NCBI GenBank assembly: GCA_963806535.1
Contig: CAWDYC010000010.1
Location: 1-64,000 of the forward strand
Reading direction: 5' to 3'
Source of the DNA: Candidatus Bathyarchaeota archaeon
Lineage (GTDB): Archaea; Thermoproteota; Bathyarchaeia; Bathyarchaeales; Bathycorpusculaceae
Length of the DNA stretch: 64,000 bases
In this document: piece by piece, positions 2,605 through 59,130 of the stretch
How the letters are laid out: every line of letters starts with the position of its first letter
Numbering within the stretch: position 1 is the stretch's first letter
Made by a program: the position numbers and the translations under genes
Notes under the pieces: generated by a model
The model's database searches: none
What the model was told of the DNA's origin: nothing
Seen by the model: only the letters and a program-made list of their open reading frames with translations

Positions 2605-2790
2605 TTTTCTTGACGATTTTTGGCTAATTTTGACTTTTTTTGACGCACCCTTCAAGCAAATTAAGTTTTAAAACAAAAAAGCAGCCAAAAATGACTTGAA
2701 CAAAATTTGCTGACGTGAAACATCAACTACTAAATGATTTTGTCGTTGGCTTTGGCTAAAATAGAGAATGGCTTTTATAATCATTGAGTC
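2605..2790 (+). repeat. Phased-array/core element R1
   Basis: ttgac-type 10-bp units, then GACGCACCCTTCAAGC..AAAAAAGCAGCCAAAA; downstream flank shared with 21690-21780. Confidence 0.8.
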
Positions 2791-2860
2791 GATTTATGGC
2801 TGGTATAAATTTCCCATAGAATAAGTCTGCAAAAAACTATAGAAAAGACCTTTTAATTAG

Positions 2861-3293
2861 TTATTCTGGGAGCGGGCAGACTTTGATTTCTTTATTGAAT
2901 CGTTGTAGATCTTTGTCTTGTGAATAAATAACGTTTGCTTTTTGGTTGATTGCTGTGGCTAAAATTAAAGCGTCGGGTAATCTTCCGCCTTTTTGGGCTC
3001 GTAAGTTAGCGGACTAGATCAGCGATTTCAAAGGTAACTGGCACTATCTTGAAACTGTTAAGAGTCAGGTCGTTGAGTAATTTTTTTACTTTTGCGGCTC
3101 TGTTTATGTCGCCTGCTAAGTAGAAGCCTGTCAGGATTTCAGCAACGGTTATTGTCGAAATTAATCCTTCATTTTCAGAATTCATAAATCCGTGTAGTAT
3201 TTTTTCTACTTTGCTTGCTTGTGGTTCGATTTCTTCTAGATAATAAATGAGAATATTTGTGTCTAGGGCCGTTTTCATTGTGGGCGTTCCCAT
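2861..3293 (-). CDS. vapC: VapC-type PIN toxin (frameshift near 3010)
   Basis: ALDTNILIY, STITVAE; continues in another frame as LRAQKGGRLPDALILATA..IYSQDKD to TAA at 2861. Confidence 0.85.
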
Positions 3294-3508
3294 TCTTCTC
3301 GTAGCTTTTTTTGATATTTGATTGGGTCTCCGAAGATGCCTTTTCCTATTCCTTTTAATTCTCCTGCTGGGTTGAAGGGTTTTAGAAACAAGCCTTCGTT
3401 TGTTGCGTTTATTTCAAGTATGATTCCGGTTTCGATGTTGAGTTTTTTGCGGTATTTCTTGGGAATTACGATTTGACCTCGCACACCGACTTTTATTTTA
3501 TCTGACAT
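3275..3508 (-). CDS. AbrB/MazE-family antitoxin
   Basis: KVGVRGQIVIPKKYRKKLNI motif, overlaps the PIN start; start set at MSDK. Confidence 0.85.
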   Translation of the reverse strand: MSDKIKVGVRGQIVIPKKYRKKLNIETGIILEINATNEGLFLKPFNPAGELKGIGKGIFGDPIKYQKKLREEWERPQ

Positions 3509-3677
3509 ATTAATTATCAGATAACTAGTGGTCAGCAGACAAATAAACATTCTTACTATGAAATACAACAATTTATGAACAGATGCGTACTCGAGGGATC
3601 ATTATAATTGTTTACGAAGTCTTTTGCGCTAAATGTTTTTGGGGCAGGTTTAATTGGTTTGAGCTTGATTCTGTGTT

Positions 3678-5027
3678 ATGCTTCGTTTGTGGTTTGATAG
3701 AGGCACTCTTCTTTTGAAAGGGGAAGTGGGGACTCCTTATGGAAAATGGGATTCCAGAGTGGGTTGCTACAGAATTAAGGCGTACCATTATCGGGATGTT
3801 TTAGAATATTTAGCTGAAAGCAAACTTCAAGTTGAAGATGACGTTCCCATGTTGCCGCCACTTGAACAGCTCAAAGGTAATTTTGTGCTGAGGGATTACC
3901 AGAATGAGGCTTTGAACAATTGGTGTCGAGCACACTACAGGGGTGTCTTGGTGTTGCCTACTGCTGCGGGAAAAACGTTCATTGCGCTAAAAGCAATTCA
4001 GCAGTTGAAAGTGCAGACGCTGATTTTGGTTCCAACTTTGGATCTTATTGATCAATGGAAAAAACGCGTCAAAGACTGCCTTAACTTGGAAGCGGGAGCC
4101 GTTGGCGGAGGTGAAAACACTGTACGAATGGTAACTGTAACTACTTATGATTCAGCCCTCATTCATGCAGAACAGCTAGGCAACAAATTCAAGCTATTAG
4201 TCTTCGACGAAGTGCACCATTTAGCTTCCACAGGCTACATACAAATAACCGAAATGTACACTGCACCATACCGCATGGGCTTAACTGCAACATACGAACG
4301 ACGTGATCAGCGGCACTCTTTGCTTTCGCAACTCGTCGGCGACCCAGTCTACTCCATTGATGTCGAAGAACTCACAGGAGAACATCTATCACCATACACC
4401 TACGAGAAAATATCAGTAGAACTAACCCCCCAAGAGCAGCAAATATACGAATCTCAAATGAACATTTTTAGAAGCTTTCTTTTGCAGCGAAGAATTACTT
4501 TGCGAGGCGCCGCTGACTTCCAAAAATTCATAATGACTACCGGAAGAGATCCAAAAGCACGCGAAGCACTCCTCGCAAGAAACCGGGCCGTGAAAGCTGC
4601 AGTGAACTCCGAAGCAAAACTAACCGTACTCGCCCAGCAGCTTGAGGTTTACCGAAACGAGAAAATCCTAATTTTCACTCTCCACAACGACCTAGTCTAC
4701 AGGATTAGTATGCGTTTCTTGGTTCCCGCGATAACATATCAGACTCCAAGGGAGGAGCGCCGAGAAATACTCTCAAACTTTGGGAACGGAAAATACCCCG
4801 TTGTTGTTACCTCTCAGGTTCTAGACGAAGGCGTGGATGTACCTGACGCTTCAGTGGGCTTAGTTCTGGGTGGAACAGGCAGCAACAGAGAATACGTCCA
4901 AAGACTCGGCCGACTGCTTAGAAAAAAGGAAGGCAAAACCGCCCGCTTAATCGAGATAATTTCCAAAGCAACTATGGAAGTTGGCACAAGCCGTAGACGT
5001 CACCAAAAAACTGGAGAAGCAGCCTAG
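3678..5027 (+). CDS. xpb: XPB/Rad25-type SF2 DNA helicase
   Basis: LRDYQ, PTAAGKT, DEVHH, GLTAT, QRLGRLLR; directly followed by Bax1. Confidence 0.9.
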   Translation: MLRLWFDRGTLLLKGEVGTPYGKWDSRVGCYRIKAYHYRDVLEYLAESKLQVEDDVPMLPPLEQLKGNFVLRDYQNEALNNWCRAHYRGVLVLPTAAGKTFIALKAIQQLKVQTLILVPTLDLIDQWKKRVKDCLNLEAGAVGGGENTVRMVTVTTYDSALIHAEQLGNKFKLLVFDEVHHLASTGYIQITEMYTAPYRMGLTATYERRDQRHSLLSQLVGDPVYSIDVEELTGEHLSPYTYEKISVELTPQEQQIYESQMNIFRSFLLQRRITLRGAADFQKFIMTTGRDPKAREALLARNRAVKAAVNSEAKLTVLAQQLEVYRNEKILIFTLHNDLVYRISMRFLVPAITYQTPREERREILSNFGNGKYPVVVTSQVLDEGVDVPDASVGLVLGGTGSNREYVQRLGRLLRKKEGKTARLIEIISKATMEVGTSRRRHQKTGEAA

Positions 5028-6599
5028 ATGCTTCCAAGTGACTTACTTTTAGTATGGAAGCGCAAAGGCGAGATTTTGCCTCGATACGCTAAACCCTCAA
5101 GTAGCAACGATGAAGCAGCAAACTTCCTCATCACAGTATATAAGACCCATATTGGAGAAAAGAAGAAAGTCCTCAAAGCCCAGGTCACAGAACTTGAAGA
5201 CAAAGGCTACGAGTACCGCTTTGTCAGAGCCCTCTCTTTGCTCCTGGACCGAAAAAGCACCTTTGTCTGCCACAGCAAAATTGACCCAGTTGATTTAAGA
5301 AGAAAAATATTTCAAGCCACCGAACAATTTGGCATACCCACTACCCCTCAAAAGAGGCACTTAATTCTGGAGAGTGTGGCTTCTAAGATGGCTCTCACCG
5401 AAGAGGATATCGAGGGATATTTTTACTCTGATTTAGATGGGGAATTGGTTCTTGAAAAGTTTTCAGCACCTTCAGTCTCGGAACTGTTGAGTGAGTATAA
5501 TTTGAGTTTGACTCAGACATTGCTTTTTGATGCTACAGAACTCAGTTTCACGGCTTCAGGCAACTGGCAAGACCTTTTCCACGCAATAAAAAAGTTTGGC
5601 TTAATCTACGAAGTCTACCAAGATAATGGTTTGTGGGTGAAAATAGATGGTCCAGCCAGCCTGTTCAAGTTAACTCGAAGATATGGCGTGGGAATCGCCA
5701 AGATACTGCCTTTCATCGTCGCTAACCCTGAATGGATGGTTAAAGCGAAGGTTCTTTGGAGATTTACAAACGAAATCTGCGACTTCAAACTTGAAAGCCA
5801 AAAACATGCAGCATTACTAAAGAAACCGTACCTGCCAGCTCTTTCTTATGACAGCTCTATTGAAGAGACTTTCGCATCCCACTTTCAAGCCTTATCTTCT
5901 GGCTGGGTGCTGAAGAGAGAACCTGAACCGGTAACTGCAGGCAAACAGGTAATTATCCCCGATTTCTCCATGGAAAAGAGCGGCATCAGAATTTATTTAG
6001 AAATTGTGGGGTTCTGGACAGAAGAGTACTTGATGCGAAAGATAGAGAAATTAAAGCAGGTCGAAGTGACAATGCTACTTTTAGTCAATGAAGCCCTGGC
6101 ATGTGAAAAACTCTTTGCTTTGGAAAAACGCCCACAGCTTGACTTGATTTACTACCACGACAAAATCTCCATGGCTCCGATTCTAAGATATCTGACGACC
6201 AAGTTTGAAGACGTCAAATCCAAAGAGATTAAGTTTCTGGAGAATTTGTCTATTAGATTTACTGAACAGGTTGTTGCATTTAGGGAATTCGCAGATAGAA
6301 TCGGGGTTTCTGCAGAAGCCGCAAGAGCCTTCTTAACTATTAATCCACCTTCGGGCTATGTTGTCTTGCCGGATATTTTGATTAGCAATGAAAAACTTTT
6401 GCAAATCGGCGATAAAATCAAAGCTGCTACTGGACAATCGGGAAAAATAGCACTTAAGGAAGTTGCAAGAATCATTGAAGAAGAAGGCGTAGATGACTCA
6501 GCTAATGTGTTGACGATGCTTGGCTACAAGATTAGATGGCGAGGTATCGACAGCAAACAAGCAGAAGTCTGTAGAGATCCGAAGAATTCTGGCCAATAA
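5028..6599 (+). CDS. bax1: Bax1 (DUF790) endonuclease
   Basis: MLPSDLL N-terminus, YNLSLTQTLLF, DGPASLF..TRRYG, IPDF...YLEIVGFWT; abuts xpb. Confidence 0.9.
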   Translation: MLPSDLLLVWKRKGEILPRYAKPSSSNDEAANFLITVYKTHIGEKKKVLKAQVTELEDKGYEYRFVRALSLLLDRKSTFVCHSKIDPVDLRRKIFQATEQFGIPTTPQKRHLILESVASKMALTEEDIEGYFYSDLDGELVLEKFSAPSVSELLSEYNLSLTQTLLFDATELSFTASGNWQDLFHAIKKFGLIYEVYQDNGLWVKIDGPASLFKLTRRYGVGIAKILPFIVANPEWMVKAKVLWRFTNEICDFKLESQKHAALLKKPYLPALSYDSSIEETFASHFQALSSGWVLKREPEPVTAGKQVIIPDFSMEKSGIRIYLEIVGFWTEEYLMRKIEKLKQVEVTMLLLVNEALACEKLFALEKRPQLDLIYYHDKISMAPILRYLTTKFEDVKSKEIKFLENLSIRFTEQVVAFREFADRIGVSAEAARAFLTINPPSGYVVLPDILISNEKLLQIGDKIKAATGQSGKIALKEVARIIEEEGVDDSANVLTMLGYKIRWRGIDSKQAEVCRDPKNSGQ

Positions 6600-6609
6600 A
6601 GAAGACTCC

Positions 6610-6795
6610 GAGGTTAAATCTACCAGGAAAAAACAACAGGTCAGTCCAGAGAATCCACAAAAAACCGTCAATAATTGCCGGGACACATGGAGACGCACAG
6701 AGACGCGTAAAGACGCAGTCTGCAGACAATTCAAAAACTAAATCAAAAAAGAAGCCCAAAACAGCTTGAACAAATTTACGTGCACGAAACATCAG
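6610..6795 (+). repeat. Phased-array/core element R2
   Basis: Tail CACAAAAAACCGTCAATAA, gagac-type array, core GACGCAGTCTGCAGAC..AAATCAAAAAAGAAGCCCAAAAC. Confidence 0.8.
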
Positions 6796-9518: not shown

Positions 9519-9660
9519 TTTTTTGACGAATTTTGACTTTTTATGACGCGTAGTGACGTTTAGTGACGTATAGTGACGCATCCTGCAAACCAATCAAGCT
9601 TAGATTCAGAAAAGCAACTTGAAAGACAAAGAACAAAGACTGCAAAAAACCGTCGAAATT
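9519..9660 (+). repeat. Phased-array/core element R3
   Basis: GAC ends at 9527, 9537, 9547, 9557, 9567, 9577; core GCATCCTGCAAACCAATCAAGC..GAAAAGCAAC..ACAAAGAACAAA; tail AAAAAACCGTC. Confidence 0.9.
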
Positions 9661-9838: not shown

Positions 9839-10117
9839 TTAGTGAGGAATATCTTCAACTTCACATTTTGGACCCTTATGAGCTTTTAAAACAATTGAAC
9901 TTACGGTACTTTTCACGCCTTTTATTTTCATAATCTTATTTTTGAGGACTTCTCGAAACTCTTCAATGTCATCGGCTGAAACAAGAGTAATGATATCGAA
10001 TTCTCCAGTTACCTCGTAAAGCTCTTCTACATCCTCTATCTTAGAGAGTGCCTCAATAACTTCATCCATAAGTTGTGACTCAACGAAAATATCAACAAAT
10101 GCATGCATCTTATGCAA
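9839..10117 (-). CDS. Stand-alone Lrp/AsnC ligand-binding (RAM) domain protein
   Basis: YEVTGEFDII, KIKGVKSTVSSIVL; no HTH. Confidence 0.85.
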   Translation of the reverse strand: MHKMHAFVDIFVESQLMDEVIEALSKIEDVEELYEVTGEFDIITLVSADDIEEFREVLKNKIMKIKGVKSTVSSIVLKAHKGPKCEVEDIPH

Positions 10118-10145
10118 TCATTTCACCTGAATTCTTGCTTATTGA

Positions 10146-10445
10146 TTACTGAAATTTAATATTGTTGGTTGGGGCTTCGATTCGTTTGTGAGTTCTGAGT
10201 ACTACTGAGACTAAGGTGCTTTGGACGCCTTTGATCTTCATAATTTTCTTATGCAAGACATTGCGAAATTCCTCCACGCTCGAAGCAGAAACAATCGAAA
10301 CAATATCAAATTCGCCTTTGACATCATAAATCTCCTCGATATTTTCGACCTTTTCGAGGGCATCTATAACTTGCGCCTTCTGAGCTGGATCGACAAAAAT
10401 GTTAACTGATGCCTCAAACTGGCCGTGACTATCGATGGACTTCAT
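10146..10445 (-). CDS. Stand-alone Lrp/AsnC ligand-binding (RAM) domain protein, tandem paralog
   Basis: YDVKGEFDIV, KIKGVQSTLVSVVL. Confidence 0.85.
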   Translation of the reverse strand: MKSIDSHGQFEASVNIFVDPAQKAQVIDALEKVENIEEIYDVKGEFDIVSIVSASSVEEFRNVLHKKIMKIKGVQSTLVSVVLRTHKRIEAPTNNIKFQ

Positions 10446-11062: not shown

Positions 11063-11419
11063 TTAGGAGATTACGCGAAGTCTTCTTTTGGTGATTATTA
11101 CAAGTGTGTTTTGAACGTTTTTGAGGTCAATTCTAGATTGTGCGGTGTTAAGCGCTTGAATGATGCTTTGGCTGGTTCCTTCTTTGGTTTTGACGAGAAT
11201 GACCGTAAGTTTGCGTTTATAAATAGAATGATACAGCTTTGCAAAATCCGCGTCTTGGGTTAGGATTGTCATGTGTTTTTGAATCGCGAATTCTGCTATC
11301 TTTTTATCCGTCGCACCTCTGAGGTTGACGTCAGCTAAAATAACTGTTACGAAGCCTTTCTGTTTTAGCCAATCACTGACGCGTATTGGTATGTTTTGAT
11401 CGATCAAAATCGGCGTCAA
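11063..11419 (-). CDS. DUF5615 PIN-like toxin
   Basis: ILIDQNIP, GATDKKI, ILTQDADF; downstream of DUF433. Confidence 0.85.
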   Translation of the reverse strand: MTPILIDQNIPIRVSDWLKQKGFVTVILADVNLRGATDKKIAEFAIQKHMTILTQDADFAKLYHSIYKRKLTVILVKTKEGTSQSIIQALNTAQSRIDLKNVQNTLVIITKRRLRVIS

Positions 11420-12764: not shown

Positions 12765-13015
12765 CAAGCTTCCAGGTTAAGGTCTGAACCCGAAAACAAA
12801 AAGCAAACCAAAAAAACAGAACAAAAGACTCCACAAAAAACCATCAATAGCCGTTGGGACGCAAGGAGACGCAGCGAGACGGGCAGAGACGGAGGAGACG
12901 AACAGAGACGCGTAAAGACGCAGCCTGCAAACATAGCAAACCACAAAATAGTAGGGTAATCCTGAAAATCTTTTTGGCAGCATTAATCAGGAAACGGACA
13001 AATAGACGATTTTTC
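12765..13015 (+). repeat. Phased-array/core element R4 (core-tail-array-core)
   Basis: AAAAAGCAAACC..AGAACAAA, tail CACAAAAAACCATCAATAG, seven GAC units (gagac type), GACGCAGCCTGCAAAC. Confidence 0.9.
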
Positions 13016-13054: not shown

Positions 13055-13489
13055 TCAAATGGACCTAGACTCATCAAGAATATTTCTGTTAAGCAATCCA
13101 AGCATTCCTTCGACAGTCATTATTTTGATTCTTTTGAATGTTTTCAACTCAAGAAGGTGTCTGTCTCCGCTTACAATAATGTCAGCGTTTCCATCATAAG
13201 CTGTTTCTATAATAATATTGTCTTTGGGGTCTTGTTTCACTGCTTCAAATTTTGATTTTACAGTAACAATTTCAGCTGACTTGATAAGTGCTTGTATGAT
13301 TCTGTTGATTTCAGCTTGGTTTGTCTTAAATTTTGGACGATTGAGTACGTTGACAAGCTCTTTTATGATTAAGTCGGATGTAATGATCGAAAACTGGTTT
13401 GTTATTCCTCGGATTAAGAGTTCTCTTGATTTGCCATCAGAGATTATGGCGCTCACCAAAACATTCGTATCGAGAACGACTCTGGGCAT
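13055..13489 (-). CDS. vapC: PIN-domain toxin (TIGR00305-like)
   Basis: RVVLDTNVLVSA, DPKDN, ADIIVSGDRHLL. Confidence 0.9.
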   Translation of the reverse strand: MPRVVLDTNVLVSAIISDGKSRELLIRGITNQFSIITSDLIIKELVNVLNRPKFKTNQAEINRIIQALIKSAEIVTVKSKFEAVKQDPKDNIIIETAYDGNADIIVSGDRHLLELKTFKRIKIMTVEGMLGLLNRNILDESRSI

Positions 13490-13500
13490 CTGATCATCTG

Positions 13501-13770
13501 TTACTTATGCCGTTTTTTTCTAACTTGGCTTATTTCTTCTTCGATTTCTTCGTCGGAAATCTTCAGTTCCTTTTCATCCATCATCTTAAAGATGCTGTCC
13601 CATTCCTTTTTCAAGTCGGGGATCTCAAGCTTCTTCATTATGATCGTGTCGCCTTTTCCGTAGATGAGAAATTTGTTTTTTGCCTTTATTCCCATCTGCT
13701 TTCTTATTGACTGTGGAATTACGACTTGGCCTTTTTCGCTGATTGTGGTGACTTGTGGTTCCTCTGTCAT
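13501..13770 (-). CDS. AbrB/MazE-family antitoxin
   Basis: TTISEKGQVVIPQSIRKQMGI. Confidence 0.9.
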   Translation of the reverse strand: MTEEPQVTTISEKGQVVIPQSIRKQMGIKAKNKFLIYGKGDTIIMKKLEIPDLKKEWDSIFKMMDEKELKISDEEIEEEISQVRKKRHK

Positions 13771-13859: not shown

Positions 13860-14160
13860 AAAGCTCAAAGAAAAAAACTTGTGCAAAAATCCGTCAATAA
13901 CTGTTGGGACGTAATAGACCAACCTGTCATTGTCTTTTTCTTGCGTTTTTTTGCAGATTCTTGCATTTATTTGCGTTTTCTTGCAGATAAAGCCGCAACC
14001 TACAAAGGATTCAAGCTCTAAAACAGAAAAGCAACCTGAATTATTAAGAGCAAAAATCCTTCTTCTTTTGTTTCCCTTATGTGTACTTGCTTTTCCTCGT
14101 GTATACACGCTTTTACTTGTGTACTTCTGTGTAAACTGTGAAAGCACATCACCAGCAAAA
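13860..14160 (+). repeat. Phased-array/core element R5
   Basis: Tail AAAAATCCGTCAATAA; TTGC ends at 13944-13984 every 10 bp; core CGCAACCTACAAA..CAAGCTCTAAAACAGAAAAGCAACC; a second degenerate tac-type array near 14080-14140. Confidence 0.85.
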
Positions 14161-16819: not shown

Positions 16820-16965
16820 TATTGACTTTTTTGACGAATTTTGACGTTTCTTGACGATTTTTGACGCGACCTGCAAACAGCATGAGGCTCAAAACAAAAT
16901 AGCTAGCGTAATCTTGAAAATCTTTTGAGCAGCACTAATCAAGAAACGGCAATAGAGTTTTTCTT
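16820..16965 (+). repeat. Phased-array/core element R6
   Basis: TTGAC x5 at 10-bp period, then GCGACCTGCAAAC; array nearly identical to 26059-26110; 3' flank shared with 12945-13015. Confidence 0.9.
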
Positions 16966-18469: not shown

Positions 18470-19109
18470 TGATTACTCTCTCTCCCTTGCGGCTTGTTCG
18501 TACACAAGCAATTAAAGCTTGCCTGCTAAACCCAAAAAATAGGTGTCAAAATTTTTTGCAGATTTATTTTTCTTTTGAGGTTGATACATGAAATTCTTGA
18601 CTTCGAAGTCGCTGCTGCCTGAGCTGAAAAAACTGCCACAGACATAACGGACAAAAAGCCGAGTTTTTACTAAGAAACAGACTCCTAGATGGGAGGATAG
18701 TCAGAGAAGTTAGGAAATGAATATATTTTACCTGAGAGAAGGATATTGCGACAGCGTAAACAAGATATCCAAAAAATGGTTTTGTGTCCTTACTGCCTTG
18801 CAATAAGCCACGCTGAACTTCAAATTTTTGGTTAATGTATGACCTGCCTTAAAGTAAATTGGAGATGAATATATGATAAATAATGATAGATGTCGTTGCG
18901 GTTGTGCAGAGACTGTTACTGAGTTTCTGGATGAAACAATACTGTTATGTTGCCCAAACTGTAATGCGATTAGAAGCAAAAGTTGGTTTTAGCATAGCTT
19001 AGATGCAAGAAAACATAGTTCTGAAATGAGAAAAAAGGGATATGGGGGGCTGTCTCCACTTCTCGGAGATCAAATCTTACCCGGTCCACTTTTTCCCCAA
19101 ATAACTTTG

Positions 19110-19460
19110 AGTTTTTTGACTAATTTTGACTTTTCTCGATTTTTTTGACACAACCTGCAACCAATTTAAGCTCTAAAACAGAAAAGCAACCCAAAACACA
19201 AAGAATAAACCCACCACAAAAAATCGTCAATAACTAATTCGGGAAGCATTGGACCAACCTCGTCTTCCTTTTTCCTCCGTTTTTTTCCTTTTTCTTGCGT
19301 TTTCTTGCATTTAAAGACGCAACCTGCAAACAAATTGGACCCTAAATCAAAAAAGCAAGCTGAAACACAAAGAACAAAACCTGCACAAAAAACCGTCAAT
19401 CGCCGTTGGGACGTAATGCGACACAGCAAGACGGGTAGAGACGGAGGGAGACGAAGGTAA
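19110..19460 (+). repeat. Phased-array/core element R7 (tandem: array-core-tail-array-core-tail-array)
   Basis: Two full cores (CAACCTGCAA at ~19151 and ~19320), two tails and three arrays with different units (ttgac, ttcc/ttgc, gagac). Confidence 0.92.
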
Positions 19461-19498
19461 CTGTTGGTTTGGTTTGTTTTAAATACTTAAACGCTCCA

Positions 19499-21399: not shown

Positions 21400-21780
21400 T
21401 CTTTCTGTGACGTTCTGGACGCATGGAGACGTTGCGTGACAGGTAGAGACAGAGCGAGACGGGCAGAGACGCAAAAAGACGCAACCTGCAACCAAATCAA
21501 GCTTCAGAACAGGAAAGCAACTTGAAAAATAAAGAACAAAAATGGGGAAAATCTGTTTTCTGTTTGCGCGGGTTTGCTTGTATTTGCTTCTATGTGCTTG
21601 CTTCTGCATGCTTTTGCTTAGGCTTGCTTCTGTGTACGCAGCCTGCAAACAAAACAATCTCTGAATAAAAAAAGCAACTTAAACCAACCTGAACAAGATT
21701 TGCCGAAATGAAACATCAACAGCTAAATCCAATTCTCGTAGGCTTCTGGTTAAAATAAAGAATGGCTTTTATAATCATTA
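21400..21780 (+). repeat. Phased-array/core element R8 (two units)
   Basis: GAC ends every 10 bp at 21420-21480, then core; TGC ends every 10 bp at 21567-21627, then core CGCAGCCTGCAAAC. Confidence 0.92.
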
Positions 21781-26495: not shown

Positions 26496-26534
26496 CTTCC
26501 ATTAAGGACTCCATTTTGTTCTCAGTTTCAAAAT

Positions 26535-35505: not shown

Positions 35506-35586
35506 ACAAAAAATTCAAAACTAAAAAATCTATAATAAGATAAAAAACTGCCTTTATATTTTTATCAAGCTAATTATATTGAGCAT

Positions 35587-40814: not shown

Positions 40815-40930
40815 TTTTTTGACGAATTTTAACGTTTCTAATTGTCTAATTTTGTCTAATAATGAACCTACCTGCAAAGATTTTAAGCCCTGAACAAAAA
40901 AGCAAACCAAAAACACAAAGAACAAAAATG
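40815..40930 (+). repeat. Phased-array/core element R12
   Basis: ttgac/ttgtc array + CCTACCTGCAAAG core; 40846-40915 is the exact reverse complement of 50967-51036. Confidence 0.92.
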
Positions 40931-41022
40931 CCACAATAATTTGGGTCCACTGACACCAATGCAAACGATCAGTGCAATAAGAATTATACCAGACGAATTA
41001 CATTCTTTGTTGGGATTATTTA

Positions 41023-42139: not shown

Positions 42140-42222
42140 GGACGGAAAGAAACAGATAGGGCCGCAGCCTGCAAAGTCGTCAGTTTCTCTTTCAAAGAAG
42201 CAGTCTAAAACACAAAGAACCA
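42140..42222 (+). repeat. Degenerate phased-array/core element R13
   Basis: CCGCAGCCTGCAAAG..AAGCAGTCTAAAACACAAAGAAC. Confidence 0.7.
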
Positions 42223-45721: not shown

Positions 45722-45855
45722 TTTAACTTTTCTTTTTGGACTAATTTTGACTTTTCTTGACTTATTTTAACTTTTATTGGCTTTTTTTGACGCATTCTGA
45801 AAACAAATTGAACCCTAAACCACAAAAGCAACTCGAAATACAAAGAACAAATTTA
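45722..45855 (+). repeat. Phased-array/core element R15 (last clear + copy)
   Basis: ttgac/ttaac units every 10 bp, then GACGCATTCTGAAAAC..AAAAGCAACTCGAAATACAAAGAACAAA. Confidence 0.85.
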
Positions 45856-45954
45856 CCACCCTGCCCAGAACTCACTAGGCCATAATGCATTTCTTTTTCG
45901 ATATTGACAAATTATTAAAGTAACATTGCTCGTAATTGGCAGGTGGGATACGCA

Positions 45955-50786: not shown

Positions 50787-50949
50787 AACACACCCTCACA
50801 AATAAATATATCAGTCTATGCTAAAAGATTTTTCGCATTGAAATAGAAGAGAACCAACGGTCTTGTTAGAGCTGAATTAATTAAGTGTTATTTTGGTTGT
50901 TGAAATTTGAAAGGTTAAGTTAATGAGATCGCAATTTTGTTGCTTTTTC

Positions 50950-51036
50950 GGCAAATTTTTTGGGTTTGTTTTTGGTTTGCTTTTTTGTTCAGGGCTTAAA
51001 ATCTTTGCAGGTAGGTTCATTATTAGACAAAATTAG
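50950..51036 (-). repeat. Phased-array/core element R16 (first clear - copy)
   Basis: 70-bp perfect reverse complement of 40846-40915. Confidence 0.92.
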
Positions 51037-51710
51037 GCATTCTTCGACAATATGTTTTGGTGCCAGATGGATAAAACGGATAGGGTACGTCAATTCTTAG
51101 AGCCCTCCAAATACTATTCCCATATTTGAAGCAACCCAATAAGAATAAGAACTCTCAATGTGATAAGAGCCAGATTGAGCGTTAATGTTTTTCTCCAATC
51201 CTTAATTTTCTGACCCAAAAAATTATAGCAAGGCAGGTATAACACGATTACCCAAAACTAACCGTAAACATTGCCTACGGGAGAGCCAAACCATACGCTT
51301 TGAGGCGTCCAGACCCAAAAACCAAAGACTTTAGCCGTCGGCTCTAAAAGAAAAAAATCAAACAGCAGTAGAGGAAAACTAGCGGCAATCGCTATGATTA
51401 CTGAATTTTTGAATTGCGACTTCCTGTAACAAACAATAGCTAATATACATCAGCGCGGCCCAAGCAAAAGAAATATTTAGAGGCACATTTGCAACGTAGA
51501 CCAGAAAGCCTTTGCCATAATTGTATCTACAGAAAACTTCTTGGGATGTATATTCAAGCAGAATCCTCCAACCACCGCAGGCAAAAAGAAAGAAACCGAA
51601 CGCTTAACCCCTATCCGCCTAATAGAGAAACCAACCGCAAACGCAAAAAAGTGAACCAAATAACTTCGTATAAAACAAAAATCAGATGCTCTAAAGCTGT
51701 CTCCTAAATC
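51033..51710 (-). pseudogene. Frameshifted CruF/DUF422-like membrane protein
   Basis: Joined frames give LLEY..RYNY..ANVPL..AWA..DF.LEP....GFWVW...WFGSPVGN; an in-frame stop and indels could be errors. Confidence 0.55.
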
Positions 51711-51816
51711 TTAGACTTAATATTTCCAAATAAACAGAGAACCTCAAAACAAGCGATGTTTTTATCCTCTCTAGTTTTGGCAGCATTGCATTTAACATTT
51801 TACAGATATCTTTGGG

Positions 51817-52442
51817 TTAGGAAAACTTTGGTGTGCGTTGGGATTCTAAACTGTTCTTTGTGCTCCAGTTAGCGCATACTGTTAGAGATTGATCCATTAA
51901 ACCTTGACAGTATTTGCAGGGAATCATTACAACTGTGCGTATAACTTCTCTTTGAACTGCAGCAGCCTGAACTGTTGGTGCTATAACTTGGATTTCGCAG
52001 GTTTGGCTTGTACGGTCAGGTCTTCCGTCTAGAGCGAGCACGCCTTTGATGGTCCAAGTGACTCTCGCGGTCATAGCCTGAACACGTTGGAGATGCTACA
52101 GCTGGAATGTTTACGTTGATTGGAAAGTTTCGGTTATCTCCTTTTACAAAATTTGTTGGTCCTGCAAGCGAAGGTTTCATAGTTACAGATTATGGTTGTT
52201 TCTTCAACTATCTTGGGAATAGAAGTTTTAAGGGCAGGATCGTAGACGTTCTTTAAAACTTTAGCTTGTTGAGTGCATAGAATTTCACATCGTACTTCCG
52301 TTGTTTGAAAGTCTTCTTGTGATTGTACATTGAGGTTTCCCAGTAGGCTTTCTCCTAAGGAAACAGAATAATTGGAAAGGTTCAAATGAACAATAGCTTC
52401 AGGAGCTGTAAGCTTATCTGTGAATTTCTTCAAGAAACACAA
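51817..52442 (-). CDS. Arrestin/SpoOM-like protein with C-terminal Zn ribbon, frameshifted
   Basis: G.L.V.S.EDF..TEVRCEI; VTWTIKGV..LDGRPD; CKYC. Confidence 0.55.
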
Positions 52443-52934
52443 AATAACACCTGCAAGTTGTTTTCCATTGATAATTCAATCTTTACCTTTTAAGATTTAT
52501 GAATATTAGATAAAACTTAACTACGATCCTATCGTGACAAAGGTAATGTCTATTAACGTTCTTAACTGATATCTTCAAGTCAGTTTTTGAAAGCTCTTCA
52601 AGACTTTTCTTTTGTCCAAATAACTTATCAGAATCACCATTAGAAAAACAAGTAGAATTGCAGCTAGAATAGTTGAGAAAATAGCAAGATAAATATCGAT
52701 ATATAATTTTCAGAAATATGTACCCATAAAAATTACTTACTGAACCAAAAACAAAAAACGCTTCTAAAGCCTAAAAGCCCAACTAACGGTTAAGCGATCT
52801 TTAGTTTTTTGGTTTAACGGCTTAATCTTCCTTCTCCCTTCGGAGAACCTTTACTTGGAAGAGACATAAATAGAGTTACAAAACTAAAAAAGTTAACTAA
52901 AAAAGCTTTGACGTCGGGCGATTAAACTTTTCTG

Positions 52935-53095
52935 TGTATTTTTTTCTTTGTGTTTTGGGTTATTTTTGGTTCGATCGGTTCATAAAAGAATGCTGGTTGG
53001 AAAACTTGAAGGACAAGCGATGGAGAAGCTTTCTTGCGCATGTTGGTATCTTTGTTTGCGTTTACTCTTTGCTTTTTGATTTTTTACAGGCAGTT
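52935..53095 (-). repeat. Two degenerate cores R17
   Basis: Reverse complement reads AACCAAAAATAACCCAAAACACAAAGAAAA and CCTGTAAAAAATCAAAAAGCAAAG..AAACGCAAACAAA. Confidence 0.6.
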
Positions 53096-53709
53096 TTTCT
53101 TGGGTTATAATTGGGGGTTGATTTGATGCAGATAATGATAGACTATTCCTCCACAGTAGACATTTCGATTAGGATTTTTACTGACCTTTTGTGAAGTGCT
53201 CTGGCTTAAACAGAAGGCTGATCCTTTATACTTCACTTCCAAAGATAAATTCAATTTCTGCCGCATTGTTTGAGGAAACGCATCCAAAACAACTTGAGGT
53301 AGCAATCGTCTCAAAACAAGCATATTCAAAGTTTTAGCCTCATTGCTCTATTAAATCGCACGATGCATTACGTTAATAAACAATTTGTTTCTTGGGCTTC
53401 ACAAAAAACTGTTCCACACAGAAACAACTAACACGTCATGATTGATTAAAAGTTTTAAACCGCGAGTGGAAAAAGTTTACGAACCAAAAAATTTACAAGT
53501 GTCCACCAAGAACACCCGCCACTATTGAAATTATAAAAAGCACAATAATACCAATAACTATGATTTTTTTAGTTGAAGACTTCATTTCGATCTGATTTCC
53601 ACGGATCTTTTGCAGAGATATACTCTTTATTTGAATTTAGGCTTTGTGAATTCAGAATTAAGCTAGATTTTGGGTTTTTAACAATTCTCAAATTTGCATG
53701 GCGATTTTA

Positions 53710-54271
53710 TTACTTTCTAAATTTGCTTTCTAAGCCCAAATGTTTCCTAAATATTTCTTCTCGCCATTTCCCTTCCCAACTAGCCCAACCAGTCTTCACA
53801 AGACTCTCGCGCAAATGAGGACTCTGAGCAACCCAATCGAGAAAACTCCAAAACCGCCTCTTATCTTGAAGCATCTCTCGCGGCACACCTTTTTCAACAC
53901 ACCACCTAACATAGGCATCGTCAACCAGCTGTCTGAGCTCGCCTGTAGATTGGACTTTTTTAACTTTGAACCCTTGCTTCTGCAGATGCTCAATTACATT
54001 TGGATAGAACGTATTCTGAACAAACATTAAAGCAGGTTTCACTATCAGGCTGCATCACAGCAACAATTTCATCTGCAATCTTTACGGCATCATCTAAGTA
54101 TTTCTTATTTCTAAAGTTCGGAGGCTGAAAAGATGACGTGGAAATTCTGCGTTCCAAAAGCATCGGTTGTGGAGGTTTAAGCGCACCAACAACAACACCC
54201 AACAAGAGATCACTCCACCCAGATGCATCTATCAAAATCATTTTACCGGGAAGAAAACAATCCAACGCCAT
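53710..54271 (-). CDS. Hypothetical protein, frameshifted near 54000
   Basis: Two overlapping ORFs (53990-54271, 53710-54042) read as one protein. Confidence 0.6.
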
Positions 54272-54881
54272 AATTAATTCGCCAGCCGCTCAAACAGCCT
54301 TTCGGTAATTTCTATGGAGCCAAACATAATTTAATCCTTCTGGTGCAACTGCTTTTGGTGGGTTTCTAATGAAAAAACTAATCTTTTTAGTTGGGGAAGC
54401 AAAAACTGAATTCTGTGTTCATAATCATTAACTAAGAGCTATCCTTCTTTATTAAAGAAAACAATAAGTGAAATTCGAGCACTCATTAGAAAGCAAAAAT
54501 TGATTTTAAAGCCGTATAAAATAAGCATTGAACGATTATATACCCAAAATCTTTAAGTTGTCCATTTACAGAAGATGTATGCACAGCAAAACAGTGCTGG
54601 AATGCGACGTTTTCAAAAAATCCACAAAATCAAAGATGAAAAACTAGGCAACCCAAACAAAGCCAATGCCCTGAAAAATCTTGGTTGTTTAACTAATTTG
54701 TAAATGGATTCAATTCGCGTTATACTTTTCTTCTTCAATTATTGTTATGGGGAAAACGGAAGCAGTTAATGGTAAAATGAATTTACTACCTAACGAGCCT
54801 CAACAAAATAATAGAATTAATTTTAATGGCTAAAAAATATTCGTGAAACAAAAGACTTAGAAACTTAAGGCGCCAATTCTA

Positions 54882-55496
54882 TCATAGTCCTGGAATGTTC
54901 GAGTCAACCAAGTTAATGTCCATATTGTAAGATTGCCCTTCGACTGAGGTTGGAGAAGTCATAACCATCTTGATTGGCCAATGAACCGTATCATCAACAT
55001 AGTACGCAGCGCTAATGCCTTCGTTATTATACTCGTAGACAGTGCAGCTTCGTGTTCCAAGCTTTGCCAAAGTTACCTGAGTACTATAGGTGCTGTTCAG
55101 AGTCATATTCGGTGGTTGGAAAGTCATGTCTTGTCTGCTTACCCAAGTGGTGGTTTCATTTTCTGATGCGCCATATGGTGTTGACATGTTATAGTCTGTT
55201 GCAACTTGGATATGGGTTTGGTTAAAGTCTACTATTTCCATTCTTGCATTGAAGGAGACATCAATTCCCATAATACTGACCTGGCCATCATATGTTGCGT
55301 AAGCACCTACTTTCATCCAAGATTGTGGATTGGTTTGGGTGCCAGATTGATTATTGGATGGGTTTTGACCGCTCATCAATATCGAAGCAGTTAAACCTAT
55401 TGCCAACGCGACAACTAAAACAACGGCGGCGACTACCAATAATCTCCTTTTGTTATTTGCAGGAATTTTTGTGTTTTGCTGATTAGATTCCGACAT
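54882..55496 (-). CDS. Membrane-anchored hypothetical protein
   Basis: N-terminal TM, WMKVGAYATY, beta-rich domain. Confidence 0.75.
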   Translation of the reverse strand: MSESNQQNTKIPANNKRRLLVVAAVVLVVALAIGLTASILMSGQNPSNNQSGTQTNPQSWMKVGAYATYDGQVSIMGIDVSFNARMEIVDFNQTHIQVATDYNMSTPYGASENETTTWVSRQDMTFQPPNMTLNSTYSTQVTLAKLGTRSCTVYEYNNEGISAAYYVDDTVHWPIKMVMTSPTSVEGQSYNMDINLVDSNIPGL

Positions 55497-55662
55497 CCGT
55501 CATCAATTTAGCAATGTATTGAATATTGCGATACAATTATATGTCTTATGGAAGCCCGATGTAGATTTGAAATCAATAAAACTAATTTGCGGAAACAGAT
55601 ATATCCAATTGAGGGTGCTTGCCAAAGAGCTATCATTTTTCCCTTAAATTGAAGGTTAAATC

Positions 55663-55770
55663 GGTTGTTGACGAATTTTTGTGAGTTTTTGTTCTTCGTG
55701 TTTTGTTTGTTTTTTGTTTTAGAGCTTGAATCAATTGCAGGCTGAGTGAAATTAAATGAAAAAAGTGAAG
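55663..55770 (-). repeat. Phased-array/core element R18
   Basis: Reverse complement: ttcac units, CTCAGCCTGCAA..CAAGCTCTAAAAC..AAAACACGAAGAACAAA, tail CACAAAAATTCGTCAAC. Confidence 0.85.
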
Positions 55771-55962
55771 GAACAGTTAATCTGGCTATTTCATCAACAG
55801 TTACTTTTGATAACGAAGAAGGCTTTGTAGATTTGTTTTCACTTTTTTGCACTCTTTTTATTAAGTAAACTGTCTATTTTGCTTAATTAAACTTGCATAA
55901 TAAACAAGCTTACGAGCGCATGCAACAAATTAGTTAAATATTCGATTTCTTTGTGTAGTTTC

Positions 55963-56105
55963 AGGAGAGGTAAAACAGCGGCGTCGAGCCGAGGGCAAAC
56001 AGCAGAGTTGAGTTCTCCTCATATTATCTTATGAAGTGCTCAACCTAAACCGTCTGTTACCCTTTGAAAGCTCGCACTTTCTGCGAAGCCTCTCGTAAGG
56101 AGAAA
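55963..56105 (+). ncRNA. Candidate structured 5' leader RNA
   Basis: TATA-like TTAAATA at 55934; nested stems GAGAGG/CCTCTC, CGAGC/GCTCG, GAGGG/CCCTT, AACAG/CTGTT, GTTGAG/CTCAAC, TCATA/TATGA; GC-richer than flanks. Confidence 0.55.
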
Positions 56106-56113
56106 AATAAAAA

Positions 56114-58724
56114 ATGAAAACTCAAACTAAAAAAATAGCAGTCGTTTTAGCAACAATGTTTCTATTGATTTCAATGATGGCAGCATTATCACCAATGATT
56201 CTAGGCGCAACTAAATAATCCAGCAGGAACAATTCAGACATCATACCCTTATGTTAAAGTCGGTCCTAACCCAATAGGCGTCGGTCAAACAGCAACCGTT
56301 ATCATGTTCGTTGGTCAACCCACATTAACCAGCGAACCCGTAACAGGTTGGACTGTGGTTAGTAACCGATCCCAATGGAGTTAAAACAACACTTGGACCC
56401 TTCGTGTCAGACGCAACAGGAGGCACATAACACTATTCACTCCATCAAAAGTCGGCAACTACACATTCCAAGGTTTCGTAGCGCAGGCAAATTTTATCAA
56501 ATAACGTCACTCTGGTCAGCTGGAACATCTAATGTGGACACACTTGTAGTGCAATCACACCCATATCGCTTAGCAGTTATCCGATAACTCCTCTTCCAAC
56601 TCAATGGTGGCAAACTCCAATAACCGCTGAAAACGTACAAAACTGGTACGCTATCTCTGGACCATGGCTTGGATACGGTTCTAACGCTTTTGCTATCACC
56701 GGAGCATACAACAATACACAAAACCAGTACAATCCATACACTCTACCGGTAATGTCTGGTCACGTCCTCTGGACAAAGCCTTGGGCTACCGGCGGAGTAG
56801 TTGGAGGAAACGCAGGCGGAACTGAAAGCAGCCACTTCTGGTCAACCAACCAATACTGGCCTAAATATGCACCAGTCATAATGAACGGTATAATGTACTC
56901 CACCCAATTTGACACAGACACCTCAAACAATCACGGCACAATTGCAACTGACTTATACACTGGAAAAACACTCTGGACACTCAACAGCACTAGCGGTAAC
57001 TTAGTTTGCGGCATGGAAACTTTCTACAAGAATCCTAATCAATACGGCACAGTCGGTCCATACATCGTCACCACGGGAGTCCTTCCAGGAATGACGGTAA
57101 TAGTCATTCTGGAACAGCATACAATCTCTGGGATGCATTGAACGGACAATATGCAGGCAGCATCATAAACGCGCCTGCAATGGGTTGATTCGGTCCGTTC
57201 GGAGGACCAGAATGGGGTGCAGATGACAACGGAAACTTAATCGCTTACAACGTTGACAACTCTAATGCGACTAAACCGATGCTTCAATTGTTTAACATGA
57301 CAGCTTGCTCTTGGAGAGGCCTTGCAATTTCGGGTGGACTCCACCACAAGGCGGCATTTTCAATTGGAACAGATGGAATAGTATGGTCTAAACCAATATT
57401 CACAAGTGTTAATGGTGGAGCATTAAAGACAGGACTCGCAGTAAACGGAGTAACAAACAATGAAGTAATCTTGACTGGCGAATTCACTTTCGGACAATTC
57501 TACGGCGGATTGCAACAAGGCTATAATATTGTAGCAGGCATGGACGCAACATACTGGCGCTCAGCTATGGATTAAAAACTTCACATCAGCAGATTCCTAA
57601 TACTCTTGCACCATGGACAAGGACACAAATGCAGATTTTCGACGGACTATGGGTTCAAGTAAACGAGGATAATGATGCCGTATTCGCAGTAAATGCAAGA
57701 CAGGCACTAAGGCATGGCAAACAACTCTGCCCGCCAGGCATAAACAACGAATGGATACGATGTGTTTAACCTCAGAACCTATCAACGGACTTGGCTGCCT
57801 CATATGCGTAGGCTTCGGAGGAGACATCTGGTGCATCAACGAAACAAGACGGACAAACGATAGATGGCAAACAGACACCATCAAGCTCTTAGGCAATCCA
57901 GGACTTGAAACACCCTACGCTACATGGCCACTATGGACCTTCATCTGCGATTGCATAACCAACGACGTAGGATACTTCGCAGTTGGCCACGAATACAACC
58001 CACCGCTATTCCACGGCGCACAACTAATAGCACTTAACATGACAAATGGACAAATTCATCTGGAGCGAATTAGACATGTCCATTGAATCCACAGAAATCT
58101 CATACGGCATCATGCTATCACGCAACGCATACGACAACCAAATATACGCATTCGGCAAAGGACCAAGCGCAACGACAGTTACTGCACCACAAGTTGGAGT
58201 AACAACACAGTACACCAATAACCATAACCGGAACAGTAATGGACGTCTCTGCAGGCGCATCCCAAAGTGCAGTTGCAAAGAACTTCCCCAACGGTCTACC
58301 ATGCGTTTCTGACGCAAAGCCAGAGCCACTGGATGGAATATGTCTACCAGCAACAACCGGTCACCAGCAAACACTACTGGCGTTCCAGTTACCTTAAGCG
58401 TCATAGATGCCAACAACAACTTTAGAACAATCGGCACAACTACAAGCGACGCAAGCGGAACATATCGCTTATACATGGACACCTGACATACCAGGCGCAT
58501 ACGCAGTCATCGCATCATTCGGAGGATCCAACTCATACTACGGATCATCAGCTGAAACCCACTTCTACGCTAGCTCAGCCATGCAGCAACACCTAGCACC
58601 AGCAGCTACACCAGAAACAGGCCTAGCAAGCAACACTACGCTAGAATACGGAATCATAGCAGTCATAATCGTCATCATCATCATCGGCGCTGTTCTAGCG
58701 TTGTTGATTATGAGAAAGAAATAA
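56114..58724 (+). CDS. Large secreted PQQ-like beta-propeller protein with C-terminal TM, heavily frameshifted
   Basis: Signal peptide, PNPIGVGQ, HVLWTKP..GG, DLYTGKTLW, HEYNPP, YDNQIYAFGKGPS, WTPDIPG.Y, TM + RKK. Confidence 0.8.
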
Positions 58725-58749
58725 AATCGACAAACACAAAATAAACAAC

Positions 58750-58772
58750 CATTTCCTTTTTTTATTTTTTTT
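58750..58772 (+). terminator. Oligo-T terminator-like tract
   Basis: CCTTTTTTTATTTTTTTT shortly after the stop codon. Confidence 0.45.
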
Positions 58773-58814
58773 GTTATAAATATTCGTCTTGTGGACTTTT
58801 TGAGTATTCGAATT

Positions 58815-58930
58815 AGTTATTGACGGTTTTTTGCGCAGGGTTTTCTTTGTGTTTTAGGTTGTTTTTTTGGTTTGGGGTTTGGTTTATTTGTAGGTTGAGT
58901 CGAATAAAGTCGAAATAAGTCCAAAAAGTT
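58815..58930 (-). repeat. Phased-array/core element R19
   Basis: Reverse complement: gac units, CTCAACCTACAAA..ACAACCTAAAACACAAAGAAAA, tail GCAAAAAACCGTCAATAA. Confidence 0.88.
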
Positions 58931-58991
58931 CAGGCTCAAAAGTGGGGAGTTGAAGCCAGCAGGCTGTTCAGTTTTATTTTTCAGAAGAGAA

Positions 58992-59130
58992 ATTTTGTTG
59001 TTTGTGTTTCAGTTTGCTTTTTTGTTTCAGGATTTGCTTTGTTTGCAGGTTGAGACTATAATTGACTGATTTAGACCCTTTGTGACCATATTAGACTATA
59101 ATTGACTATACTTGACTCTTTTTGACTTAT
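58992..59130 (-). repeat. Phased-array/core element R20
   Basis: Eight units at 10-bp period (GAC on + ending 59056-59126, i.e. GTC on the core strand), then TCAACCTGCAAACAAAGC..AAAAAAGCAAACTGAAACACAAAC. Confidence 0.9.

Follow-up and report, generated by a model that had tools for sequence, protein, structure and literature searches.

The stretch of DNA analysed here (the window) comprises the first 64,000 nucleotides of contig C10 (C10:1–64000) of G000, a metagenome-assembled genome (MAG) of the Bathyarchaeia that amounts to 2.95 Mb in 12 contigs, with 41% G+C and an assembly that is 92% complete; the window makes up 2.2% of this genome. In its intergenic spaces a composite element recurs 22 times, in which an array of short boxes repeated every 10 bp is joined to an A/C-rich core and, in some copies, to a tail. 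The element is an undescribed, genus-expanded family of dispersed modules, and the window is a hot spot of copies that stand without a linked gene and also mark points of rearrangement. Elsewhere in the genome the element adjoins genes for proteins of about 92 residues (aa). The explanation that we favour, to which we assign a probability of about 0.5, is that it represents the cis-control module of this multi-copy family of putative DNA-binding proteins, which resemble PhS018 and would belong to the AbrB/MazE/MraZ superfamily.

A first-pass annotation of the window had described the same multi-part element at about 20 intergenic loci, and this description was borne out when 40 seed copies of the core were made into an nhmmer model and the whole genome was scanned with it at a threshold of E ≤ 1e-3. 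The model finds 108 cores, spread over all 12 contigs and forming 79 clusters (57 single, 15 double and 7 triple); the window contains 22 of them, or about 20%, from position 2638 to position 59060. With up to three mismatches, the first 16 nt of the core occur 17 times in the window vs. 0.53 times expected from shuffles, none of 100 shuffles reaches that number, and the observation of an enriched core stands. The tail motif is also enriched (9 occurrences vs. 0.13 expected), and with up to four mismatches it accompanies 7 of the 22 window cores. Regarding the phasing, Tandem Repeats Finder (TRF) detects an adjacent array at 15 of the 22 window cores, with a period of 10 and 1.9–7.6 copies, and beside 82 of the 108 cores in the genome; the period is 10 in 64 of the 66 calls that adjoin cores. 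Arrays of at least 45 bp with a period near 10, 20 or 30 number 65, of which 47 lie beside a core and 18 away from any core.

All 22 window copies are solo, i.e., without a gene for the 92-aa protein beside them. The first 18 cores lie on the forward strand (+, 2638 to 45785) and the last four on the reverse strand (-, 50945 to 59060), and the gaps between elements hold one to about eight genes each. Starting from the left, the element at 2610–2712 (+) has a TTGAC-type array (2610–2644) and a core (2638–2712) with a variant 3′ half; it is followed by that at 6690–6780 (+), in which a GAGACG-type array (6690–6717) meets the core (6708–6780) and a tail-like motif precedes (6656–6673), and by that at 9534–9658 (+), with a GTGAC-type array (9534–9581), a core (9571–9658) and a tail (9641–9658). 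The elements at 12858–12998 (+; GAGACG-type array 12858–12910, core 12913–12998) and 16822–16949 (+; TTGACG-type array 16822–16866, core 16859–16949) share a 56-nt module in place of the 3′ half of the core (12943–12997 and 16894–16949, respectively); the two modules are 87.5% identical, are the only ones in the genome and may form a hairpin with one compensatory change. Between these two elements lies the one at 13936–14059 (+), with a CTTGC-type array (13936–13985) and a core (13989–14059).

Some copies stand in tandem. The element at 19108–19232 (+; short TTGAC-type array seen by eye, without a TRF call; core 19143–19232; tail 19215–19232) is followed by that at 19263–19402 (+; TTCC/CTTGC-type array 19263–19306, core 19312–19402, tail 19384–19401) and then by a GAGACG-type array without a core (about 19403–19470); phased arrays of this core-less kind, with a period of 10 or 21, also occur at C3:370595–370661, C4:85949–86034 and C7:148445–148510. 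A second tandem consists of 21400–21562 (+; GAGACG-type array, by eye; core 21476–21562) and 21573–21708 (+; TGCTT-type array 21573–21617; core 21636–21708, with a variant 3′ half), downstream of which come a TATA-like box and a gene at 21804. In a third, 26059–26179 (+; TTGACG-type array 26059–26098, core 26091–26179) is followed by 26229–26362 (+; CTTAC-type array 26229–26271, core 26271–26362, tail 26343–26360) and by 26394–26502 (+), whose array (26394–26433) is the reverse complement of the CTTAC type and whose core is at 26435–26502.

Further to the right, the element at 35385–35508 (+; TTCC/CTTAC-type array, by eye; core 35431–35508) lies 175 bp after clpB, and that at 36816–36937 (+) has a GTGAC-type array of 7.6 units (36816–36891) with a partial core (36884–36937, E 2.7e-4). 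These are followed by 40842–40943 (+), with a short GTCTAA-type array and a core at 40870–40943, by a partial core with no recognisable array at 42160–42220 (+), and by 45733–45856 (+; TTGAC-type array 45733–45791, core 45785–45856), which forms the left boundary of an inversion described below. On the reverse strand are a weak core element at 50945–51060 (-; core 50945–51012, E 5.7e-4; GTCTAA-type array, by eye), an element at 55666–55790 (-; core 55667–55747, tail 55666–55683; TTCAC-type array, by eye), and the tandem of 58817–58929 (-; core 58817–58903, tail 58818–58835, GACT-type array 58898–58929) and 58988–59140 (-; core 58988–59060, AGTC-type array 59053–59117 or slightly further), the latter being the right boundary of the inverted segment.

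The genes among which these copies are found include two repair-type pairs, an XPB helicase with Bax1 (DUF790) at 3678–6599 and a DEAD/HRQ1-type helicase with an MrfA Zn-binding (MZB) protein at 23061–25347, and an HVO_2833-type domain; XPB with Bax1 and this domain identify the source as an archaeon. There are toxin-antitoxin pairs of a PIN and a MazE/AbrB-type protein at 3006–3571 and 13055–13770, and a DUF5615 PIN-like gene at 11063–11419; the MazE-type genes of the window lie outside the 92-aa family and encode antitoxin-like proteins of the usual kind. Two adjacent genes for stand-alone Lrp/AsnC ligand domains (9839–10445) belong to a family of eight in the genome, and an open reading frame (ORF) of 752 aa without a Pfam match (36952–39210, -) adjoins a protein of 477 aa with repeats of the Listeria-Bacteroides type. 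No tRNA was found in the window.

The unit of the array consists of a box of 4–6 nt and a spacer of about 6 nt, and the box differs from copy to copy. When all copies are aligned on the core, roughly 14 classes can be assigned by eye, with box types that include TTGAC, GTGAC, GGGAC, GAGACG, GACC, CTTAC/CTTGC/TTCC and CACA, as well as TTCAC, AACG, TACG/GTAC, TGCTT, AGTC, GTCTAA and ATGTAA. Three of the classes are reverse complements of others, and therefore the orientation of the box relative to the core is not fixed. Most classes alternate the box with a run of T or A, the GAGACG class being without A/T tracts. Array and core overlap in the last unit, so that the first three or four “core” bases belong to the array and vary by class, and the constant part of the core begins at CAACCTGCAAAC. 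Just before the core, many copies have AT-rich hexamers that resemble a TATA box; the 3′ half of the core exists in variants, and indels of 1 or 2 nt occur in the core of 15 of the 108 copies.

The six strands of three elements that were folded are no more stable than shuffles (z between +0.19 and +1.23); inverted repeats are absent from two of three element regions, the third having array-to-array complementarity only; and there are no terminal inverted repeats, the sequence at the array end not recurring in inverted form at the tail end. The families that the first-pass annotation had set aside remain set aside. CRISPR arrays have a constant repeat of 24–48 bp separated by unique spacers of similar length, and the units found here measure 10 bp. 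The element is neither a repetitive extragenic palindromic (REP) sequence, given that it forms no hairpin and folds as just described, nor an attC site, with no dyad or hairpin, copies on 12 contigs and no integrase on the contig. It had also been stated that the window encodes no recombinase, and there is indeed no tyrosine recombinase (PF00589) on contig C10, the six PF00589 matches of the genome being elsewhere. The proposed Rfam search gave no match in the 64-kb window, on either strand, at the gathering score, and a brief survey of the literature on intergenic or mobile repeats of Bathyarchaeia found no description of the element. By contrast, one of the roles first suggested, a link to replication of the kind seen in the FtsK orienting polar sequences (KOPS), finds no support, since in 44 bins of 20 kb the orientation of the elements shows no correlation with GC skew (r 0.00), AT skew (0.07) or gene strand (0.10).

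Among the genes that neighbour the elements of G000, compared by means of a crude ORF-based set of 3200 genes, one protein family of about 92 aa stood out as enriched; we coined the label AbrB2 for it. A tblastn search finds nine AbrB2 loci in G000, six intact and three broken, and all nine adjoin the array side of an element in divergent orientation, with the start codon 65–129 bp from the start of the core, and thus the array fills the upstream region of the gene. The six intact loci are C4:368188–368466, C12:31397–31672, C9:160421–160681, C6:39788–40063, C11:63733–64005 and C11:177124–177402. None of the nine is in the window, the nearest being a broken copy at C10:75907–76181, 12 kb past its end. 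The same arrangement is seen outside G000. The family has matches at about 150 places, and 23 loci outside G000 were examined. In other genomes of the genus, the core model finds a divergent core next to the AbrB2 start at 15 of 19 loci (L168–L186), with a gap of 45–107 bp in L168–L178, where it was measured, and at the four loci without a match, a short array and a core that has diverged can be recognised by eye; together with L188, L200, L204 and L207 (four out of four), the total elsewhere is 19 of 23. No other neighbouring gene is conserved between AbrB2 loci, and the unit of gene, array and core occurs in otherwise unrelated contexts. The divergent arrangement is also present on a contig of 29.9 kb filed as viral in IMG/VR (L269), with an AbrB2 gene that is 64% identical and a divergent core 107 bp away.

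A profile made from an alignment of 23 members has a sole match in the PDB, 2GLW (E 4.5e-4), which is also the top Foldseek match (TM-score 0.72, E 4e-4) of the AlphaFold2 model of AbrB2; the model has a predicted local distance difference test (pLDDT) score of 90.5 and a predicted template modelling (pTM) score of 0.80, and contains a strand-strand-helix-strand pattern twice. The protein in 2GLW, PhS018 of Pyrococcus horikoshii, has been classed as a relative, in a single chain, of the AbrB, MazE and MraZ barrels, which are of the swapped-hairpin type, and is predicted to bind DNA (PMC4333400). Relatives of AbrB2 number at least 1200 in public protein data, mostly labelled “hypothetical” and in a few cases given automatic AbrB/PrlF or MraZ labels. 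In the second half of the protein a KDGR loop is nearly invariant, and in the first half the loop (residues about 14–19) goes with the class of box, as judged by eye from 21 pairs: GNR with xGAC, QNR with GGAC or GTAC, RDR with GACC, NL or DL with CACA, and ANA with AACG. This loop is presumably the counterpart of the Gly-Arg loop through which AbrB-type proteins contact bases.

A scan of genome contigs with the core pattern retrieves many contigs of Candidatus Bathyarchaeia/Bathyarchaeota, from MAGs of peat, bog and soil, along with isolated single matches in unrelated bacteria. Genomes of the genus contain 0 to 45 matches each to a strict pattern, with at least one in 26 of 61, and the consensus of the core is maintained across species; reversed-pattern controls give 0 or 1 matches, as do the other families of the order. 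The search for a gene that tracks the element, which the first-pass annotation had recommended, leads again to AbrB2: it is present in all 18 genus genomes with at least two element matches, the 25 genus genomes without it have at most one match each, and the copy numbers of element and protein correlate with a Spearman coefficient of 0.78 over the 61 genomes, which are kin and not independent samples. Outside the genus, AbrB2 is found in 14 of 201 genomes of the class, as a single copy, and upstream of these homologues short arrays and a core-like TTAAGC...AAAAGCAA stretch can be seen by eye. A BLAST search of plasmid and phage records gave no element match, and the 60 pattern matches in viral contigs are attributed to chance, given that none of them passes the core model.

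A precedent for the layout of the gene-linked copies is provided by MraZ. In the cryo-electron microscopy work on the protein of M. genitalium, four GTG(G/T) boxes with a spacing of six nt are described upstream of its own gene, and one subunit occupies each box in the major groove, with cooperative binding for which the spacing matters (PMC12957436). The arrays of G000 have the same 4 + 6 layout and the same position beside a gene of the same superfamily, and for this reason we read them as operators. A complete unit would consist of an AbrB2 gene (leftward), a 10-bp-phased array of three to nine boxes, and an A/C-rich core (rightward), with or without a tail. Successive AbrB2 molecules would dock on successive boxes, one per turn, each placing a single basic loop in the major groove, and the bound array would cover the promoter region of the gene and thereby repress it; different paralogs would read different boxes. 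The first-pass annotation had spoken of a platform for the binding of protein, with a site on each helical turn and an anchor, and this proposal gains substance from the presence of AbrB2 beside the arrays (9 of 9 loci; 19 of 23 elsewhere) and from the MraZ-like layout, binding itself being what we infer from both.

As for the core, it would act as an insulated promoter for the AbrB2 gene. In many gene-linked copies, its array-proximal half contains a TATA-like box of the TTAAAT type on the gene strand, which agrees with the hexamers that show the highest enrichment upstream of G000 genes, and the remainder is T-rich on the gene strand and resembles archaeal terminators; it is the combination of TATA-like box and terminator-like T-runs that makes an insulated promoter the most likely role of the core. 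The position of the box would place the start of transcription near the junction of core and array, and the array would then be an operator just downstream of it. A positional scan for TATA boxes upstream of the crude gene starts was too blurred to place promoters.

Several observations weigh against this explanation, beginning with the absence of an AbrB2 gene beside some 99 of the 108 copies, or about nine in ten. The orientation of clusters relative to their neighbours is near random (same/same 27, opposite/opposite 21, opposite/same 17 and same/opposite 13, according to a crude gene caller), and in this the solo copies are unlike ordinary regulon promoters. The TATA-like pattern, in its strict form, is found in only 18 of 107 copies of G000, and among these the array-side neighbour points away in 11 cases and toward the element in 7, which is uninformative. 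The protein has no match in Pfam, the MraZ family included, and MraZ-promoter complexes show weak Foldseek similarity to it (E 0.1–0.2), which is why we regard AbrB2 as a relative within the superfamily and not as a member of the MraZ family. In the 92%-complete assembly of G000, the GAGACG, GGGAC, TTCAC and TGCTT classes of solo copies have no intact cognate array linked to a gene, and the GTGAC and AACG classes are matched by broken AbrB2 genes only. Since the genomes are kin, the co-occurrence of element and protein could reflect joint inheritance, as could the match of loop to box.

The comparison with G013, a genome of another species, cuts both ways. In favour of the explanation, the two gene-linked pairs keep their arrays (identity 0.95 and 0.70), the mean over all 16 positional pairs being 0.47. 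Against it, solo arrays at matching positions are poorly conserved, and at one locus (L139) the element is present in both species with a different class of array. This divergence of the solo arrays fits turnover better than conserved regulation. The identity of the core at matching positions (0.73) is about the similarity of any two members of the family, and shows no site-specific conservation. At a further locus (L143), the whole spacer is replaced between the species; flank identity cannot separate real breakpoints from fast-evolving spacer DNA.

To account for the solo copies, the explanation based on control by AbrB2 has to be complemented by a history of the element: they would have arisen by duplication, by truncation of AbrB2 and by recombination between copies, and they would persist as extra binding platforms. 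Part of this history can be read from their remnants. On their array side, 16 of 108 elements retain similarity to AbrB2 coding sequence (at least 3 bits), compared with 1 of 108 on the control side, and a conserved “head” that precedes several array classes corresponds, by eye, to the reverse complement of the first dozen AbrB2 codons; judging from such sequences, some solo copies are decayed full units. Others are parts of recent segmental copies. Five composite repeats of 0.3–0.8 kb are 85–96% identical (C5:365.4 kb, C4:413.6 kb, C6:106.5 kb, C11:6.6 kb and C8:171.2 kb); they carry a small zinc-ribbon gene, in full or only its 3′ end, whose product has an acidic C-terminus similar to that of LysW, then an element with a GTGAC array and usually then one with a CTTAC array.

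As repeated sequences, the solo copies would also serve as crossover points for inversions and for the reshuffling of gene blocks. Among the 20 G013 loci compared with G000, three reveal inversions that end at inverted copies of the element in G000: C8 126.6–148.9 kb, C7 357.6–367.1 kb and, in the window, 45.8–59.0 kb. The last is bounded by the copies at 45785 (+) and 58817–59060 (-), and the switch of homology is inside the core. A fourth inversion, on C2, has a model match at one end only. In the stretch of the window between 30 and 48 kb, blocks of genes map to different contigs or places in relatives; all five elements are at block boundaries, but four of the nine boundaries have no element. 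Recombination between repeats explains the rearrangements, and a dedicated site-specific system is possible but unsupported; of the earlier suggestion of a recombination site, the part that stands is that inversions between species are observed at the elements. The solo copies thus mark synteny breaks and the end points of inversions in these genomes, and probably assembly breaks as well.

The alternative that survives best, doubtful as we consider it, is that the element is a selfish, non-autonomous mobile repeat, comparable to BOX elements, bacterial interspersed mosaic elements (BIMEs) or miniature inverted-repeat transposable elements (MITEs), and spread by an unknown transposition or copy mechanism; AbrB2 would be a passenger or an accessory DNA-binding factor, and the arrays by-products of slippage or of junction duplication. 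It would account readily for a copy number that goes from 0 to 45 pattern matches among species of one genus, for the clustering of copies in hot spots and in long runs on the same strand (neighbouring clusters tend to share it, with switches at 17 of 68 pairs), for the five near-identical composite copies, for elements in either orientation beside any kind of gene, for the turnover of arrays and elements at matching positions, and for a unit of gene, array and core that turns up in unrelated contexts. However, the comparison of 20 G013 loci, centred on its elements, with G000 yields no clean filled-versus-empty site, and no target-site duplications are seen at the edges of the elements in alignments of copies; for both reasons, transposition is not shown. 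The absence of edge duplications and of terminal inverted repeats also led us to reject a MITE. Nor does any transposase track the element in an all-against-all clustering of ORFs, in which the sole multi-copy one is of the IS200 type, with three copies. A mobile repeat would further have to be reconciled with its absence from plasmid and phage records, with the failure of all 60 viral pattern matches to pass the core model, and with the kept order of units among copies and the strict 10-bp period, which slippage alone leaves unexplained.

The IS200-type element measures about 590 bp, encodes a Y1 transposase of 131 aa and has subterminal hairpins; its copies (C3:355935–356330, C4:112587–112982 and C8:17988–18383) are identical, and the one on C4 is inserted inside a core element. 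A REP or BIME system with a REP-associated tyrosine transposase (RAYT) was rejected on the grounds that this Y1 transposase is the only one and has hairpin ends of its own.

A more far-reaching version of the favoured explanation, which strikes us as unlikely, is that AbrB2 and the arrays form a DNA address system coded by paralogs, in which each paralog would recognise a 4–6-nt box of its own by means of a single variable loop. The hundred or so solo arrays, all attached to the one conserved core, would be chromosomal landmarks by which the proteins organise or insulate accessory gene blocks and join cores for exchange. If it were true, it would represent a new, protein-guided form of gene-cassette shuffling in archaea without a classical integrase.

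Improbable, in our estimation, is the notion that the element is transcribed as such, the core being a promoter followed by a short A/C-rich RNA without structure (or, from the other strand, one rich in G/U) and the array its upstream control region, so that the whole would behave as a portable leader, a small RNA or a protein sponge. The TATA-like hexamers just before the core in many copies can be read in this way, as can the second TATA-like box inside the core, on the opposite strand, which many gene-linked copies have and which matches the hexamers enriched upstream of genes; the maintenance of the core consensus across the genus can also be counted in its favour. Against these points, there is no Rfam family, the six strands fold no better than shuffles, and the core has no coding periodicity and has 1- or 2-nt indels in 15 of 108 copies. 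After the element, the genes downstream are preceded by a TATA-like box of their own, and orientation relative to genes is near random; on these two counts a leader or promoter for the downstream gene was rejected. A peptide encoded on the G/T-rich strand of the core was rejected as well: the frame is open in 99 of 107 copies, but there is no 3-base periodicity, and the open frame is not telling, because all four stop triplets of the consensus miss that frame with a chance of about 0.2.

We give very little credence to a site-specific recombination site that bounds exchangeable cassettes in the manner of an integron or shufflon, with the core as the crossover. The three inversions with breakpoints at inverted copies, the switch of homology inside the core in the window, the position of all five elements of the 30–48 kb stretch at block boundaries and the common orientation of the 18 elements from 2.6 to 45.8 kb are what such a site would produce, but any dispersed repeats that recombine give the same inversions. 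In addition, no recombinase is found in the window or on the contig and none is linked to the element, the core lacks dyad symmetry or a hairpin, the elements are scattered over 12 contigs and do not form one array, only five of the nine block boundaries in the 30–48 kb stretch have one, and seven relatives lack an element within 1.5 kb of clpB. Weakest of all, and hardly credible, is a signal of chromatin or architecture, in which G/C-containing boxes and A/T tracts that alternate every 10 bp would bend the DNA or set the position of archaeal histones and so mark boundaries: the strict period, kept while the identity of the box is free, and the alternation of box and T- or A-run in most classes speak for it, but the GAGACG class has no A/T tracts, and such a signal accounts neither for the specific link to the gene of a putative DNA-binding protein nor for the conserved core.

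The control of AbrB2 genes by arrays of cognate boxes, which we prefer to these alternatives, would have consequences beyond the window. Bathyarchaeia are abundant and almost entirely uncultured, little is known about their gene regulation, and the element ties a large unannotated protein family to a DNA signature that can be read. Predictions follow as to which protein binds which box and which residue of the loop sets the box; provided that the box code holds, the family would amount to a naturally occurring collection of small DNA-reading proteins whose specificity can be swapped.

Four known systems can be compared with the element. Plasmid centromeres and iterons (parC with ParR; Rep iterons) are helix-phased direct repeats bound cooperatively by a self-regulating protein encoded next to them. 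The element is similar in having helix-phased direct repeats beside the gene of a small putative DNA-binding protein, and differs in that it is chromosomal and present in more than 100 copies, the protein fold is another, and no partner ATPase or replication initiator is found among the neighbours. BOX elements (boxA-boxB(n)-boxC) and BIME/REP sequences are short, non-coding, modular intergenic repeats in multiple copies, which are lineage-specific and act as substrates of rearrangement. They share with the element its modular structure with one module repeated variably, its restriction to a lineage, its variable copy number and its role as a rearrangement substrate; unlike them, the element lacks units that are palindromic or form hairpins, has no enzyme of the RAYT type and gives no sign of a stable RNA fold, and its repeated module is only 10 bp long, varies in sequence by copy and is linked to a gene family of putative DNA-binding proteins.

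With respect to the protein, PhS018 (2GLW) is the best match in both profile (E 4.5e-4) and structure (TM-score 0.72), and like AbrB2 it is an archaeal protein of 92 aa with two repeat halves in one chain. The two are 18% identical, and PhS018, being uncharacterised, provides no function for AbrB2; we know of no report of repeat arrays beside its gene. MraZ differs from AbrB2 in length (about 150 aa vs. 92 aa), and AbrB2 has no match to the Pfam MraZ family and only weak Foldseek similarity to MraZ. The DNA differs too: the arrays described here have 3–9 boxes instead of four, many paralogs with different boxes coexist in a genome, and more than 100 arrays are spread over the chromosome, most of them without a gene, attached to a conserved core of about 65 bp and outside any division and cell wall (dcw) context. 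The boxes of MraZ lie beside its own gene, a situation matched by the gene-linked copies and not by the 22 copies of the window. What the two systems have in common is, judging from the structural model, the swapped-hairpin AbrB/MazE/MraZ superfamily and two repeat halves in one chain and, in the DNA, boxes of about 4 nt with about 6 nt of spacer, head to tail at 10 bp, next to the gene of the regulator itself.

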